In this document: positions 11,359 to 57,023 of the stretch, piece after piece | Numbering within the stretch: the stretch's first letter is position 1 | Layout of the letters: each line of letters begins with the position of its first letter | Assembly: GCA_965279285.1 (NCBI GenBank) | Contig: OZ257148.1 | Coordinates: forward strand, 70,116-134,115 | Direction: 5' to 3' | From: Gammaproteobacteria bacterium | GTDB taxonomy: Bacteria; Pseudomonadota; Gammaproteobacteria; DSM-16500 | DNA length: 64,000 nucleotides | Made by a program: the position numbers and the translations under genes | Notes under the pieces: model-generated | What the model saw: the letters and a program-made list of their open reading frames with translations, nothing else | Told to the model about the DNA's origin: nothing | Databases searched by the model: none

Positions 11359-11486
11359 GTAACTATTCAGCAGCTAGAGAGTTTGGTGGGCACGCTGCGC
11401 TTTGCCCACCCTACATTTTTTATAATTTTTGTAGGGTGGGCAAAGCGCAGCGTGCCCACCAAACTCTCTAGCTGCTGAATAGTTAC
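11359..11486. mobile_element. Family-1 MITE/REPIN-like element, complete: perfect 56-bp inverted arms, 16-bp loop, 8-bp direct duplication CCCAATTA at both flanks
   Basis: Left arm GTAACTATTCAGCAGCTAGAGAGTTTGGTGGGCACGCTGCGCTTTGCCCACCCTAC equals the reverse complement of the right arm. CCCAATTA at 11351-11358 and 11487-11494. Confidence 0.9.
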
Positions 11487-11502
11487 CCCAATTATTACCT
11501 GG

Positions 11503-12003
11503 ATGAATAGACCAATGATCTATAAAACTTTTCTTCTATTTTTATTCGCAGTACTCTGTAGCTGCGCGCACCACCCCCAAAATAAAGCCACGAGCTATGT
11601 TGACTCAAGTCAAACCACAGCCCGAGAAAATGCTCATCTTGTATTTAATTATTTACATGCTGGCTATACCGATTTTGCAAAAGAAAAACTTGAGCTAGCC
11701 TTACATATAGCGCCGGATGACCCCGTGATTCTGGACACAGCTGGCTATTACTATGAAAAAACCGGCCGCATTAAATTAGCAAATTATTATTATAAACAAG
11801 CTATTAAGGCAGCGCCTTATTCTGGGTTTGCCAAAAATAACTATGGCTCATTTCTGTGCCGAAACGGTTATTATAAAGCATCCATACCCCATTTTTTACA
11901 AGCCGCCAAAATGCCCAAAACATCTGTCACCCAAAAAGCGCTTGAAAACGCAAACTTTTGTAAGCTACAACTGAAAACTAAACTTGGCGATAGCGCTACA
12001 TAA
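11503..12003 (+). CDS. pilW: TPR-repeat lipoprotein, PilW-like (type IV pilus biogenesis/stability)
   Basis: Signal peptide with a Cys lipobox-like site (FAVLCSCA), TPR-like repeats, and conserved position between rlmN and rodZ. Shorter (166 aa) than typical PilW. Confidence 0.55.
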   Translation: MNRPMIYKTFLLFLFAVLCSCAHHPQNKATSYVDSSQTTARENAHLVFNYLHAGYTDFAKEKLELALHIAPDDPVILDTAGYYYEKTGRIKLANYYYKQAIKAAPYSGFAKNNYGSFLCRNGYYKASIPHFLQAAKMPKTSVTQKALENANFCKLQLKTKLGDSAT

Positions 12004-12071
12004 GTTTATGATACCCGATGTTAGGCCTGGATATAAATTCAAGGATAGAACTGAAACACTAGGATAGTTAA

Positions 12072-12887
12072 ATGATCACGGAAATTGAAGCAGCTATGAC
12101 AAACAACCCAATTTTACCGAACACGGTAACAACGCAAACGGGATTAGGCCAACGCCTAAAATCGACACGCGAATCTTTACGTCTGACCGAAAAAGATGCG
12201 GCTTCTCGCTTACGCTTAAATTCAAAGATCATTCCTCTGATGGAAAATGAAGACTTTAATAATGAATTACTACCTCCTGCTTTTATGCGTGGTTATTTAC
12301 GTTCCTATATGCGTATGCTCAACATTCCCGAGGATGAGATTAATACTATTTTTGCCCAACAAACAGCAACATTAGAACAAACACCACCGTCCTCTTCACC
12401 TCTGATATTAAAAACACTACCTATTAATCATAGTCATCGCTACTTACGTGGAATGACGTATGTCATCGTTGGCATACTTGTTGCGCTCGTCAGTATCTGG
12501 TGGGTCTCCCATTCAAAAGAAACTTTTTTAGCAAAACCAATAACCACACCCGCAGTTAATAATGCACCATCATTAACGACGGTCGAAAGTACAGCGCCTG
12601 GAGAAAAATCAACCCCAGCAGCAACCGATGAATTAAAAACAAAAATAAATGAACCACAAGCTGCCCCACAAACAGGAACAACAGTAACTCCTGCTGGTCC
12701 ACAAACTAATACCCAACAACCCACAATAGCTGCACCCAATCAGAATACTGCTATCACGACTGAGGTACCGACAAACTCAGCTGAAACAAACACGCCACCT
12801 TCTGATTCCCAACCAGTCGCATCAACTCCTCAACCCACTAACAATGCGACAGATTCAGACGAAGATAATATATACACAGATTATTAA
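12072..12887 (+). CDS. rodZ: RodZ-like cytoskeleton protein (HTH, one TM, Pro/Thr-rich tail)
   Basis: XRE-type HTH GLGQRLKSTRESLRLTEKDAASRL, TM YVIVGILVALVSIWWV, and conserved synteny. The C-terminal part is low-complexity PT-rich, and no DUF4115-like segment is evident. Confidence 0.6.
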   Translation: MITEIEAAMTNNPILPNTVTTQTGLGQRLKSTRESLRLTEKDAASRLRLNSKIIPLMENEDFNNELLPPAFMRGYLRSYMRMLNIPEDEINTIFAQQTATLEQTPPSSSPLILKTLPINHSHRYLRGMTYVIVGILVALVSIWWVSHSKETFLAKPITTPAVNNAPSLTTVESTAPGEKSTPAATDELKTKINEPQAAPQTGTTVTPAGPQTNTQQPTIAAPNQNTAITTEVPTNSAETNTPPSDSQPVASTPQPTNNATDSDEDNIYTDY

Positions 12888-12899
12888 CCGAGGCTAACA

Positions 12900-14174
12900 G
12901 TGGCAAATCTAATTCAATCTATCCGCGGAATGAACGATATCCTTCCCGCAGAAAGTTATCTTTGGCAACACGTAGAAACTACACTACGCAATGTATTACA
13001 GAGTTACGGCTATCAAGAGATTCGCCTTCCCTTACTAGAAAAAACGGAATTATTTAAACGTTCCATTGGTGAAGCAACTGATATCGTTGAAAAAGAAATG
13101 TATACCTTTCTCGACCGCAACAATGAAAGCCTAACATTACGCCCCGAAGGGACAGCAAGCTGTGTTCGCGCAGGCATCGAGCATGGATTGTTTCATAATC
13201 AAACTCAAAGGCTATGGTATTTTGGGCCAAATTATCGTTATGAACGACCACAAAAAGGGCGATATCGTCAATTTTACCAATGTGGCGCGGAAGTTTTTGG
13301 TCTTCCGGGCCCTGATGCCGATGCTGAGCTTATCCAACTTGCTGGGCGCATTTTACAAAATCTTGGTTTACGTTCGAGTGTCACCCTAGAATTAAACTCA
13401 TTAGGGTCACCAGAATCACGTCTAGCCTATCGAGATGTATTAGTCACTTATTTTACCCAACATCATGACCAGCTTGATGAAGACAGCCAACGTCGCCTCA
13501 CGACTAACCCTTTACGTATTTTAGATAGCAAAAATCCAGCCCTGCGTGAACTCATTGCTCATGCGCCCAAACTTACTGAATATCTCGATCCTGAGTCGCA
13601 AGAGCACTTTACTAAACTACAAGAATACTTAACAGCCGTAGGAATATCTTTCGTCATTAATCCCTGCTTAGTACGTGGATTAGATTATTATACCAAGACA
13701 GTTTTTGAATGGGTGACAACAGAGCTAGGCTCTCAAGGTGCTATTTGTGCTGGGGGACACTATGATAATCTAGTAGAACAACTCGGTGGAAAACCCACCC
13801 CTGCTTTAGGATTTGCGATTGGCATAGAACGTTTAATTTTACTTCTACAACAAACCCAACAACTCACACCTCCCACGCCCGAAATTTATTTCATGAGTGA
13901 TAACGATGATTGCTTTCAAAAAAGCTTATATTTAGCTGACAGCTTACGCAGCCAAGTACCCGGGCTTAGCGTCATATTACACTGTGGTGGCGGCAGCTTT
14001 AAAAATCAGTTTAAACGTGCCGACAAAAGTGGCGCTCAATTTGCCTTAATTTTAGGTGAAGAAGAATTAAAAACTCATACTGTTTCTATTAAATCATTAC
14101 GTGAAAACACACCACAAGTAGCGGTACCTCAAGCAGATATCGTGGAATATATGATATTGCGGCTTAAAGGTTAA
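12900..14174 (+). CDS. hisS: Histidine--tRNA ligase
   Basis: Class II aaRS motifs ([23 protein letters not shown]-like GGHYDNL). GTG start. Confidence 0.95.
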
Positions 14175-55404: not shown

Positions 55405-55470
55405 AGAAAATAACTAAAATAAAATTTTAATCATATTACGCTCTCGGTCTTGGTATTACAATCCGCTCAC

Positions 55471-55554
55471 AATAGCTGCTTAGCAGCCAAGTTTGGTGGG
55501 CATGCTGCGCTATGTGGTCGCGGCTCAGTAACAACATGTAACCGAGCCGCGACC
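55471..55554. repeat. Degenerate family-1 half element fused to a second hairpin module (GGTCGCGGCTC..GAGCCGCGACC)
   Basis: AATAGCTGCTTAGCAGCCAAGTTTGGTGGGCATGCTGCGCT followed by the 11-bp-stem palindrome at 55516-55554. Confidence 0.75.
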
Positions 55555-55605
55555 GTCAGGGAGCGATCACAACGCCAGCAAATACGGTACTACCCCGCCG
55601 AGAAA

Positions 55606-56838
55606 TCAAGGTACAGGAGGTAAGGCTACAGGTCCAGATACACTAGGTTGCTGTGCTGGTCGTCGAACCGGTTCAAACACTGTTATTCCTGCCTTGAATG
55701 CTGCTCTAGTCTTTTTTCTATCCTCGCTTCTTTCAAATGCACTGGCGGCAGCATTTTTTGGTACTGGTCGTGCAATGGCATCCACTCCGCCCGTTCCTGG
55801 TCTTGTTGTAGTTGTGGCTTTTGTACCTACAGAATCCGCAGCAGGAGCCTCTACTCCTGGTAGAGCATGTAGCATAACTGCATCACTAGAATGAGGAAGC
55901 ACTTCTAAAGGCACATTACTACTAGCAGCTCTAACCCCAGGTACATTATTATTACTATTTCCTACCTCACTCCCACCAGGCTCAACGCCATACGCTACCG
56001 CTACTTCTTGTGCTGTGCTAGGCTTACCATGATTTAATTCGTTCGCAGGTACTTCAGCTTCAGGATGCTGATCAGACTGACTATGTTCATCAGCAGAATC
56101 ATTATGTCTCGGCGTTGCTTTAGCTCGTGACTTTTGAACTGCTTTATATGCGCAATAAGCTGCGCCTACCGCAGCAAAAACTATCCCAAACCCCATCGTT
56201 AATTTAGTTAAAAAGAATGTGAGACCTAAAGCAATAGTAACAACAGTGCTGGTTATTGCGAGAACGAATTCTTGTTGAAGTTGTTTAGTATGATATGCCA
56301 TAACAGCTGGATCTTGGTGAGTAAAACGCCTTGCTCTCAACAATGCTGCCCCATGATAAATTGCCTTACCAAGATGATAAAGTGCTTTTACTGCATAAGC
56401 TGCACAAAAAAGTATTGGCGCAATCAAGAGAGATCCAAACGAAACTAAAAACATTCCAAGCAAAGCAACCCCTAGCAGCGCTGTAGAAGCAGTATAAATC
56501 ATCGCTTTTGCTAATGTAGTTCTATGAACACGGTGACCTGCTGGCGCGCTGACATTACGACCCTCAATCATTACATCACGCCATGCTGAGACCGTTTGAA
56601 AAGCATTAAACAAAAGTAATAACGGAAATAAAATTATATTAGTTAGCTCTGTCCATGCAGAAGAGAAAAACCGACCTAAAGTAAACATCGCACTTGTCTC
56701 AGCAAATTCTGCTGCTTTTGCGGCCATTTCTATTCTGTTTACTTCCTTTAAACTCGTAGCTACATTGTTGCTGTAAACAGGCGAATATCCTCCTGCTGCG
56801 ACAATTCCTGATTTTCTTTTTCCCCTATTTAAGCTCAT
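55606..56838 (-). CDS. Polytopic membrane protein with Pro/Ala/Gly-rich C-terminal tail, paralogue A
   Basis: Shares FNAFQTVSAWR, LFCAAYAVKALYHLGKAIYHGAALLR and FFLTK blocks with the gene at 57137-58561. ATG at 56838 (MSLNRGKRK) with RBS GAGGGG is preferred over the track TTG at 56871, which lies in the repeat. Confidence 0.65.
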   Translation of the reverse strand: MSLNRGKRKSGIVAAGGYSPVYSNNVATSLKEVNRIEMAAKAAEFAETSAMFTLGRFFSSAWTELTNIILFPLLLLFNAFQTVSAWRDVMIEGRNVSAPAGHRVHRTTLAKAMIYTASTALLGVALLGMFLVSFGSLLIAPILFCAAYAVKALYHLGKAIYHGAALLRARRFTHQDPAVMAYHTKQLQQEFVLAITSTVVTIALGLTFFLTKLTMGFGIVFAAVGAAYCAYKAVQKSRAKATPRHNDSADEHSQSDQHPEAEVPANELNHGKPSTAQEVAVAYGVEPGGSEVGNSNNNVPGVRAASSNVPLEVLPHSSDAVMLHALPGVEAPAADSVGTKATTTTRPGTGGVDAIARPVPKNAAASAFERSEDRKKTRAAFKAGITVFEPVRRPAQQPSVSGPVALPPVP

Positions 56839-56869
56839 AAACTCACCCCTCATCATTAATTTATGCAAC

Positions 56870-57023
56870 AATAGCTTATTACAATGACTTAGAGAGTTTG
56901 GTGGGCACGCTGCGCTTTGCCCACCCTACTAGATGCCAGCTAGAAACACGCTGGCATGACAAGATTTCGTAGGGTGGGCAAAGCACAGCGTGCCCACCAA
57001 GCCCTCTGCTGCTGAGTAGTTAC
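56870..57023. mobile_element. Family-1 element with ATGCCAGC..GCTGGCAT palindrome in its loop, between the two paralogues
   Basis: REP...CTAGATGCCAGCTAGAAACACGCTGGCATGACAAG...REP...GCTGCTGAGTAGTTAC. The left end is degenerate. Confidence 0.85.

Follow-up and report, generated by a model that had tools for sequence, protein, structure and literature searches.

The intergenic DNA of the window, a 64,000-nt stretch of chromosomal DNA on a 2.28-Mb contig of an uncultivated low-GC gammaproteobacterium, carries a two-layer repeat in which pairs of REP hairpins lie within MITE-type ends. With up to 3 mismatches, the 30-mer GTAGGGTGGGCAAAGCGCAGCGTGCCCACC occurs 31 times, compared with 0 in 100 dinucleotide shuffles, and a 32nd copy, at 22068, is recovered if one indel is permitted. 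These 31–32 copies (chance expectation 0) are located at 17 loci, all of which had been listed in the original prediction, and every copy is intergenic or overlaps an ORF end, in agreement with the near-exclusive intergenic placement described there. The terminal inverted repeat (TIR) GTAACTATTCAGCAGC was found 16 times with up to 2 mismatches (0.04 expected) and 21 times with up to 3. The repeat is probably a chimera of the type of QMITE2 of Coxiella burnetii, that is to say, a REP pair carried as a passenger in a TIR chassis that would be mobilised in trans by a DDE-type transposase.

REP-carrying elements and their modules

The REP includes a GTAG head and a stem-loop with an 8-bp stem (GGTGGGCA/TGCCCACC), and its predicted fold agrees with the hairpin originally described. 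Inverted pairs, with the GTAG ends inward, are present at 13 of the 17 loci, consistent with the original view that most loci are inverted doublets; the remaining loci carry single REPs (19251 and 39183) or truncated REPs (loci 45611 and 55471, copies at 45646 and 55491). A tandem cluster and mixtures with small hairpins also occur. We designate the REP-carrying elements family A; in 7 of them, the inverted pair has GTAACTATTCAGCAGC at both ends.

The element at 11359..11486 is composed of a TIR, a 10-nt linker, REP(-), a 16-nt AT loop, REP(+), a linker, and a TIR. It is a perfect palindrome with 56-bp arms, flanked by the target duplication CCCAATTA, and its DNA fold has an energy of -77.5 kcal/mol (z = -25). 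The other complete elements are (i) 21989..22123, in the minC/minD spacer; (ii) 25065..25213, which has degenerate REPs, a loop with a degenerate ATGCCAGC hairpin (~25130), and the duplication AAATGCTA; (iii) 33291..33456, with a 36-nt spacer module in the loop and the duplication AAATAATC/AAATAACC; (iv) 34646..34812, which has the same 36-nt spacer module in the loop; (v) 43914..44051, whose left TIR is decayed; and (vi) 47309..47457, whose loop carries the ATGCCAGC..GCTGGCAT hairpin (47366) and whose right TIR extends into the 3′ end of a glycosyltransferase ORF. The loop of 21989..22123 is oriented opposite to those of the other elements, and 33291..33456 directly adjoins a remnant of family B (described below).

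Less complete copies retain parts of this scaffold. The left TIR is strongly decayed in 56872..57023, whose loop includes the ATGCCAGC..GCTGGCAT hairpin (56933); in 15821..15922, a REP pair lacks the right TIR and the decayed left TIR overlaps the upstream stop codon; and the half element 39183..39238 (plus strand) consists of one REP(+) followed by the linker and right TIR. The locus 42469..42846 (plus strand) contains a left TIR, REP(-), a loop, and 5 tandem REP(+), that is, a pair followed by four further REPs, which form a 5 x 66-bp array (42553-42846) with a unit of one REP and the 36-nt spacer ATTTTTCCAGTATAATATTAAAATTGTAATGCTTTT. The remnant at 55471..55560 includes a TIR remnant, a truncated REP, and the palindrome GGTCGCGGCTC..GAGCCGCGACC (55516-55554). 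REP pairs without TIRs are located at 20682..20781, where the linker is also missing and the outer sides of the REPs abut AT, at 29126..29195, 33 nt 3′ of the ruvB stop codon, and at 46380..46470, which overlaps an ORF start, with the next ORF's stop codon 2 nt away. A single REP (19251..19280, plus strand) lies between convergent genes, and the mosaic locus 45611..45720 has a truncated REP between a reverse and a forward ATGCCAGC..GCTGGCAT hairpin (45616 and 45685). The spacers of the REP pairs range from 10 to 58 nt and their modules are exchanged between copies; the original modular description, with other palindromes swapped into the loops, is accurate. The asymmetric loops have a strand bias of 11:2.

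Target duplications and the shared chassis

The flanking 8-mers of the 7 complete elements matched at 8, 5, 8, 7, 6, 6, and 3 of 8 positions (5 at 21989..22123, 8 at 25065..25213, and 6 at both 34646..34812 and 43914..44051), so that 5 of the 7 reach 6-8, whereas 72 mismatched flank pairs used as controls gave a maximum of 5. In distant metagenome contigs with a GC content of 54-57%, an unrelated palindrome is bounded by this same terminus and has a perfect 8-bp duplication. These results support the claim that complete copies are TIR-capped with 8-bp duplications, and the behaviour of the ends is that of a MITE. This reading is further upheld by the presence of the terminus on REP-less cargo, both in an unrelated organism and in the window.

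In the window, the REP-less cargo forms a second family, family B. The element 52035..52186 (plus strand) has the same TIR as family A, an outer stem that is long and variable, and a core resembling the TwoAYGGAY RNA motif (Weinberg 2010, PMC2864571); the elements 38012..38163 and 26778..26928 (both minus strand) have a TwoAYGGAY-like core between TIRs and a decayed left TIR, respectively. Family B aligns across the whole 168-nt RF01731 model, so that the outer stem and the two AYGGAY-type loops are covered, with scores of 39.8, 39.9, and 45.2 bits for these three copies, of which only the last is above the gathering score of 43; this likeness belongs to family B and not to its REP-carrying sister. 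Also present are a family B remnant with unrecognisable TIRs (33133..33290), the left half of a family B element (51084..51182, plus strand), and solo TIR remnants within the last rlmN codons (11268..11292, plus strand) and at 54942..54960 (plus strand). No target duplication was found on the family B copies (flanking 8-mers match 1/8 and 3/8). TwoAYGGAY is not presented as a TIR-bounded mobile element in PMC2864571 or PMC4333381. Because the same ends carry this other cargo, we regard the TIR as the chassis and the REP pair as the passenger.

The outer layer of the proposed chimera is the 16-bp TIR with its linker of approximately 10 nt, and the variable 8-bp duplications would mark insertion by the trans-supplied DDE-type enzyme. 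Our best guess for the parent transposase is an IS66-like family, since IS66 ends start with GTAA and 8-bp duplications are made; the IS66 ends begin with GTAAGCG (PMC11946415), of which the TIR has only GTAA in common. No IS with this TIR was found in viral or metagenome scans. As originally stated, the window encodes neither a transposase nor a RAYT: a tblastn search of it with E. coli RayT found nothing significant, and NCBIfam or Pfam scans found none among ORFs of at least 200 aa outside 12072-12887 and 15985-16650. The lack of a transposase in the window and of duplications on family B count against the chimera, and the 11:2 loop bias is at odds with the random insertion predicted for a DDE enzyme.

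The same bias would suit a one-enzyme element, a long REPIN recognised and moved by a RAYT, of which the TIR and linker would be only the outer part and whose flanking 8-mers would reflect target preference or chance. The elements are near-perfect long palindromes, as REPINs are, and composites of REPs with unrelated stem-loops adjoin some Pseudomonas tyrosine transposase genes (PMC3733652). However, the flanking 8-mers vary by site and match far above controls, and REP-less cargo has the same terminus, both in the window and in an unrelated organism. Y1 transposases of the IS200/IS605 type are not known to make target duplications, and the REPs at the RAYT loci of 5 other genomes (described below) are without this TIR. 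We give this explanation very little credence.

REP class, divergence, and history

The exact 30-mer is present in at least 99 stretches of other genomes, including Bradyrhizobium, Marichromatium, Rhodoferax, Vogesella, and low-GC gammaproteobacterial MAGs. REPs of the same class with compensatory stem changes adjoin RAYT genes in 5 unrelated genomes, namely Marichromatium (locus L012), GCA_011392765.1, Nodosilinea, Methylococcus, and Microbulbifer; the fully compensated stems are GGTGGGCA, GATGGGCA, GCTGGGCA, and GCCGGGCA, and the RAYT-flanking pairs of Methylococcus have GTAG inside, as in the window. The associated RAYT clade has 46% identity to E. coli RayT. The hairpin is a true REP, as originally proposed, and the inner layer belongs to a class that flanks a widely conserved RAYT (Y1/HUH) clade.

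The REPs diverge from their consensus at 8 of 570 nt (1.4%), compared with 77 of 494 nt (15.6%) for the adjacent linkers and TIRs. The uniform unit is the 30-nt REP and not the entire capped element. This contrast is consistent with insertions that were mediated by the ends long ago and with REPs that have been kept uniform, and the approximately 11-fold lower divergence of the REPs also fits a nested origin, in which RAYT inserted REPINs later into a preferred centre of existing TIR-bounded MITEs and the capped unit never moved with its REPs. REP-less chassis (family B), TIR-less REP pairs, and the loop bias point the same way. By contrast, the REP-to-TIR position is constant in all capped copies, with the same AAACTCT-type linker; linker variants co-vary between the arms in 3 copies, which fits descent from palindromic founders; and the window contains no family A chassis without a REP. 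A nested origin is unlikely, although it deserves some weight. Under the chimera, one capped REP pair would have spread via its ends after the split from the nearest sampled relatives, the ends would have decayed since, and RAYT-linked turnover or sequence-specific selection may have held the REPs near-identical.

Comparison of orthologous regions was suggested originally. Two syntenic relatives, L101 and L102, are free of REP and TIR copies over 17-21 kb, which supports a lineage-specific expansion; the available relatives are too diverged for any empty site to be aligned. This absence from two relatives of the same gene order also argues against immobile host motifs, that is, units now fixed as mRNA stabilisers, attenuators, or protein-binding sites and kept uniform by host selection only. 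Such roles are suggested by elements in short spacers of co-directional gene strings (minC-minD and ruvB-tolQ, for example), by QMITE2 positions conserved across Coxiella strains (PMC5896051), and by the family B GGA-loop hairpins, a kind proposed to bind CsrA (PMC4333381). A purely structural role would allow compensatory changes, but within the genome the full 30-nt sequence, loop included, hardly varies; there is no enrichment of terminator-like sites, and the REPs were not scored as terminators. This reading, which concerns present function and is compatible with a mobile origin, is quite improbable as the explanation.

Comparison with known repeats

REPs/BIMEs and REPtrons of E. coli and other Proteobacteria share with the window repeat the GTAG head, the GC-rich stem-loop, and dense extragenic copies that form inverted pairs, clusters, and mosaics in which other short motifs take part (PMC2817692, PMC3733652), whereas classical REPs/BIMEs have no terminal inverted repeats or target duplications. 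REPINs, which are thought to be moved by RAYTs (Bertels and Rainey 2011, PMC3116915), also have two inverted REPs and a spacer in a long hairpin; here, the conserved unit is the single REP rather than the pair with spacer, and the capped copies have target duplications. Classical MITEs (Correia/NEMIS, ERIC, Chunjie, and MITEAba12) are likewise non-coding, intergenic, strong hairpins with TIRs and fixed-length duplications, but their interiors are usually related to the parent IS, whereas the interior here is a REP pair from a different (HUH) transposition system and no parent IS is known for the ends.

The original prediction considered the combination of REPs with MITE ends unusual; it has a precedent in C. 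burnetii QMITE2, a MITE around a GTAG REP, with TIRs of 23-29 bp and direct repeats of 7-9 bp, which is reduced to a plain REP element in its truncated copies and whose REP part matches Bradyrhizobium (Wachter et al. 2018, PMC5896051; architecture also reviewed in PMC10969869). Both repeats are small and non-coding, with a GTAG REP core, TIRs, unique direct repeats, plain REPs lacking both TIR and direct repeat as their truncated copies, a REP part in common with Bradyrhizobium, and copies at or overlapping gene 3′ ends, including that of ruvB. They differ as follows: (i) the Coxiella REP GTAGCCCGTATGAGCGAAGCGAAATACGGG has a different 7-bp stem, with only the AGCG.AGCG loop motif shared; (ii) GTAG is outside in the 3 Coxiella pairs seen and inside in the window pairs; (iii) the window elements are 128-167 bp and QMITE2 150-190 bp; and (iv) no IS1111 is present in the window. 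The likeness is one of architecture, and the sequences compared are those of the REPs. QMITE2 is the closest precedent, with the same architecture, and since the design is already described there, the window repeat is a new example rather than a new kind.

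Anatomy and genomic setting of the REP-carrying elements

The 30-nt REP module GTAGGGTGGGCAAAGCGCAGCGTGCCCACC occurs in the window in 31 copies at ≤3 mismatches, and dinucleotide shuffles give 0; one further copy, the 32nd, has an extra nucleotide inserted, and 2 additional copies are truncated. At this density (32 copies per 64 kb) every copy is intergenic or lies at ORF ends, and all 17 module loci of the original prediction exist, each intergenic or overlapping ORF ends. The unit is composed of GTAG and an 8-bp-stem hairpin, as had been stated, with a 10-nt loop, that is, GTAG beside a GC-rich stem-loop within the 20–40 nt that define a REP. 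The 16-nt terminal inverted repeat (TIR) GTAACTATTCAGCAGC occurs 16 times at ≤2 mismatches, against 0.04 expected, and 21 times at ≤3 mismatches. It is perfect in the best copy (11359–11486), which is arranged in the order TIR, linker TAGAGAGTTT, REP(−), loop ATTTTTTATAATTTTT, REP(+), linker, and TIR. The arms of this copy, each 56 bp long, form a perfect palindrome, and its predicted DNA fold has −77.5 kcal/mol (z = −25). Both TIRs are present in 7 of these REP-carrying elements (family A), and the left TIR of an eighth (56872–57023) is badly decayed. Four additional loci retain one TIR or a remnant of it, and 3 REP pairs and 1 single REP are wholly devoid of TIR and linker, with AT abutting most of their outer ends. 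A tandem array on the plus strand (42553–42846) consists of 5 head-to-tail repeats of a REP and a 36-nt spacer.

The REP pairs of the window carry GTAG inside and are "TT" dimers in the naming of Di Nocera et al. (PMC3733652). Their loops range from 10 to 58 nt; some contain the 36-nt spacer, and others contain the hairpin ATGCCAGC..GCTGGCAT, which lies at 45616, 45685, 47366, and 56933; the spacers between REPs have been exchanged freely among copies. The predicted swapping of other palindromes into the loops was seen for ATGCCAGC..GCTGGCAT, and the third hairpin, GGTCGCGGCTC..GAGCCGCGACC (55516), comes after a truncated REP. Terminator and promoter scans revealed no enrichment, and the REPs were not scored as terminators. 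Rfam miRNA matches on the elements, far under their gathering scores, were set aside as generic long-hairpin artefacts. Plasmid BLAST with family A and with the REP-less family B elements described below gave no match, and a literature search for the exact element sequences returned nothing relevant.

The window carries the housekeeping genes aceE, aceF, lpd, aspS, lysS, der, hisS, rlmN, ruvAB, minCD, prfB, and prfC. Two syntenic relatives (L101 and L102), whose RlmN proteins are 86% and 88% identical to that of the window, contain no REP and no TIR copy across 17–21 kb, so the expansion is lineage-specific. The comparison of intergenic regions called for by the original prediction showed all copies to be absent from these relatives, whose spacers are too diverged for an empty-site alignment. 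In the window, a TIR remnant (ATAGCTATTCAGCAGCAAGAGCGTG, 11268–11297) spans the last rlmN codons and the stop codon, so that the RlmN C-terminus is read as element-derived; RlmN relatives align over only 94–100% of the query. In L101, a solo hairpin ATGCCAGC..GCTGGCAT(GACAA) lies directly after rlmN (11112–11136). Because it stands alone in this REP-free relative, we regard the hairpin as an independent small repeat family older than the REP expansion.

Further features of the window are recorded here. A 30% GC island (22–6396 and 7031–8107) includes the gene for a 2124-aa protein in which TIR and NACHT (STAND NTPase) protein domains occur, and beside it the gene for a protein that combines a histidine-kinase-like ATPase domain with DUF4325; from domain content alone, we suspect that the island is of defence type. 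The divergent spacer adjoining it holds 4 direct 22-bp repeats with ATTGTCAACTT (8097–8203). The neighbouring ORFs at 55606–56871 (421 aa) and 57137–58561 (474 aa) are paralogues that are 71–77% identical in nucleotide blocks. Neither matches Pfam, and the 474-aa ORF, the one scanned against NCBIfam, has no match there.

Element ends and the cargoes that they enclose

The 8-mers flanking the 7 complete family A elements are identical at 8, 5, 8, 7, 6, 6, and 3 of 8 positions, whereas 72 mismatched left/right pairings reached a maximum of 5. The TIR caps and 8-bp duplications originally proposed are accordingly borne out, with 5 of the 7 copies identical at ≥6 positions. The duplicated 8-mers vary by site (CCCAATTA, AAATGCTA, and AAATAAYC). 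Duplications of variable sequence and fixed length are the product of a DDE transposase and are not known from Y1/HUH enzymes of the IS200/IS605 type; the REP-associated transposases (RAYTs) are Y1/HUH transposases. That each element is a long REPIN moved by a RAYT alone is highly improbable: the long palindromes and the orientation bias of the loops speak for this reading, and these duplications, the REP-less elements with the same ends, and RAYT loci whose REPs lack this TIR speak against it.

The TIR of family A also caps family B, whose copies lie at 52035–52186, 38012–38163, and 26778–26928, with remnants at 33133–33290 and 51084–51182. Their outer stem is long and differs in sequence from copy to copy, and it is self-complementary within each copy. 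The core can be aligned along the full length of the Rfam motif TwoAYGGAY (RF01731; gathering score 43), with scores of 45.2 bits (26785–26922), 39.9 bits, and 39.8 bits, and the outer stem and termini of the model are matched by the inner portion of the TIR; a default gathering-mode Rfam scan listed no family B copy. TwoAYGGAY, a candidate CsrA-binding sRNA, may therefore be cargo of a TIR-bounded mobile element. REP-less elements with the same ends, together with REP pairs that are found in the window free of any TIR, speak for the proposal that REPINs inserted repeatedly into empty copies of the chassis, as we term the TIR-bounded ends; the constant position of the REP relative to the TIR in all capped copies speaks against it, and such repeated insertion seems unlikely.

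A metagenome scan for the TIR recovered a ~137-bp element in contigs of an unrelated organism with a GC content of 54–57%. It was found at one locus shared by 2 contigs (L146, Ga0137388_10444384; L156, WNFJ01604963.1) and at 673–808 of a third (L144, WNFJ01309828.1). The left terminus of this distant MITE is GTAACTATTCAGCAGC, identical to that of the window, and its right terminus, in reverse complement, is GTAACTTTTCAG or GTATCTGTTCAG. The element is flanked by a perfect 8-bp duplication (AACACAGA), and its interior is an unrelated long palindrome. The same terminus thus delimits REP pairs, family B with its TwoAYGGAY RNA motif, and palindromes of other kinds such as the distant one, and we therefore regard it as a chassis with exchangeable cargo. 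Most metagenome matches to the TIR were chance occurrences in coding DNA, several of which translate by eye to "NYSAAKAG" and were taken as fabG-type. A 3-kb TIR-bounded element considered in L156 was rejected, its interior being ordinary genes.

Neither tblastn with Escherichia coli RayT nor NCBIfam or Pfam scans of all but two of the listed ORFs of ≥200 aa found a transposase or RAYT in the window, as the original prediction had it. A parent IS would be expected to have the ends GTAACTATTCAG. Viral and metagenome scans for such an IS returned chance matches and one other MITE only, and all viral-contig matches to the TIR were chance matches in coding DNA. The ends of IS66-family elements begin with GTAAGCG, and these elements make 8-bp repeats (PMC11946415). 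The window ends begin with GTAAC, and their overlap with the IS66 end is limited to GTAA; the duplication length of 8 bp agrees with the family. With agreement confined to these 4 nt and the duplication length, IS66 is no more than a candidate.

The REP class, its RAYT association, and the divergence of the layers

An exact scan for the 30-mer over one genome per species recovered at least 99 stretches. Among the matches listed, Bradyrhizobium accounts for the majority, and further carriers are Marichromatium gracile, Rhodoferax, Vogesella, Sedimenticola, a Candidatus Berkiellales MAG, and 2 low-GC gammaproteobacterial MAGs. The hairpin is a true REP whose class is widely conserved, and its distribution shows that it is not specific to the organism of the window. 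In the Berkiellales MAG (L063, 1–800), inverted exact REP copies bracket a ~190-aa ORF with a P-loop motif recognized by eye; the arrangement resembles a REPtron, and the gene is not a RAYT.

Searching the exact-30-mer loci by tblastn with E. coli RayT yielded 1 RAYT, in Marichromatium, 46% identical to RayT; on its flanks lie the exact REP and two variants of it, GTAGGCTGGGCA..TGCCCAGC and GTAGGCCGGGCA..TGCCCGGC. Among the matches listed, its homologues form a large clade of Gammaproteobacteria and cyanobacteria (57–74% identical). The variant GTAGGATGGGCAAAGC..GCGTGCCCATC flanks the RAYT in 4 of 4 homologue loci (GCA_011392765.1, Nodosilinea sp. E11, Methylococcus sp. EFPC2, and Microbulbifer), so that the REP class of the window adjoins a RAYT gene in 5 other genomes, which supports the RAYT-type reading originally given to the hairpins. 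The RAYT-flanking variants of these 5 genomes show that the stem varies by compensation (4 fully compensated variants across genomes) with the loop AAGCG.AGCG retained, and the RAYT-adjacent pairs of Methylococcus carry GTAG inside, like those of the window. The best 120 RAYT homologues include none from the genome of the window. Across proteobacterial classes the 30-mer is the same, and one conserved RAYT clade is associated with it.

Within the window, the two layers differ in divergence. Across the 19 REP halves that retain TIR-type sequence beside them, 8 of 570 REP positions depart from the consensus (1.4%), whereas the adjoining 26 nt of linker and TIR do so at 77 of 494 (15.6%); pairwise REP identity is 97%. 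By this measure the uniformly kept unit is the 30-nt REP, loop included, and we take its uniformity as a sign that the sequence itself is recognized, more than as a sign of a role in structure only. In 11 of 13 pairs the asymmetric loops (11415–56930) point in the same chromosomal direction (two-sided p ~0.02, small sample), and the tandem array and every full-length single REP lie on the plus strand. Since GC skew is negative throughout, the window belongs to one replichore. A strand-specific process that works on single-stranded DNA would produce such a bias, which random DDE insertion does not predict; a replication-strand bias in loop and REP orientation is possible.

We consider it probable that a DDE transposase working in trans spread a REP pair within MITE ends, and that the ends then decayed while the REPs were kept uniform. 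MITE ends would first have come to enclose a REP pair, and the transposase would have spread the composite, producing the target-site duplications. After its activity stopped or slowed, the ends would have decayed, a RAYT-linked process or sequence-specific selection would have held the REPs uniform, and REPs would also have propagated without ends. Immobile motifs under host selection only, a view that draws on the location of elements in short spacers between co-directional genes and has the near-invariance of all 30 nt and the REP-free relatives to face, are highly improbable. A farther-reaching view, which we advance tentatively and as rather doubtful, is that the GTAACTnTTCAG terminus with its 8-bp duplication is a cross-phylum MITE chassis with interchangeable structured cargo, and that a RAYT-type, strand-specific process maintains the uniformity of the REP cargo here. 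If this were true, two unrelated transposition systems would serve one small element, and the TwoAYGGAY "RNAs" would in reality be mobile elements.

Comparison with Coxiella QMITE2

The finding originally made proved accurate and its interpretation sound, except that the combination of REP hairpins with MITE ends, described as unusual, has a published precedent. QMITE2 of Coxiella burnetii (Wachter et al., PMC5896051) is 150–190 bp long, with TIRs of 23–29 bp, unique direct repeats of 7–9 bp, and a GTAG REP in its core. It is full length in 10 of 78 copies, and its strongly shortened copies are REP elements that lack both the TIR and the direct repeats; its REP part matches Bradyrhizobium and Rhodopseudomonas, and copies overlap the 3′ ends of genes, ruvB among them (PMC5896051). 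The window elements match this architecture feature for feature in their direct repeats, TIRs, GTAG REP core, and REP-only short forms. Both the QMITE2 REP part and the window 30-mer are shared with Bradyrhizobium, in many genomes of which the 30-mer is exact. A TIR-less REP pair of the window (29126–29195) lies 33 nt downstream of ruvB; by analogy with QMITE2 at the ruvB 3′ end, the same site may have been reused, or the two may coincide by chance.

The two REPs are of different families. In ~60 kb of Coxiella DNA, with loci reached via DUF1658 peptides, the REP is GTAGCCCGTATGAGCGAAGCGAAATACGGG; its stem differs from that of the window (CCCGTAT versus GGTGGGCA), and only the loop motif is related. 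The 3 Coxiella REP pairs seen there carry GTAG outside, whereas window pairs carry it inside. The same ~60 kb held REP-pair short forms only, with no full-size QMITE2, and plasmid BLAST with the Coxiella REP pair gave no match. Because the architecture agrees, the window element is best filed with the QMITE2 kind, as a further member by architecture, built from a different REP family. The REP-in-MITE element is thus not a new class. What is new here is the separation of the layers by divergence, the chassis held in common with TwoAYGGAY cargo, and the identity of REP and terminus across phyla.

The lineage of the window appears to be related to Coxiella and of intracellular type. Its elements, which differ in sequence from QMITE2, provide a clear second case of the REP-inside-MITE design, of which QMITE2 has been the only described example. 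Because the layers are separable here, with decaying ends set against identical REPs and the same ends carrying other cargo, the locus is a useful test case for REP uniformity and MITE cargo exchange.
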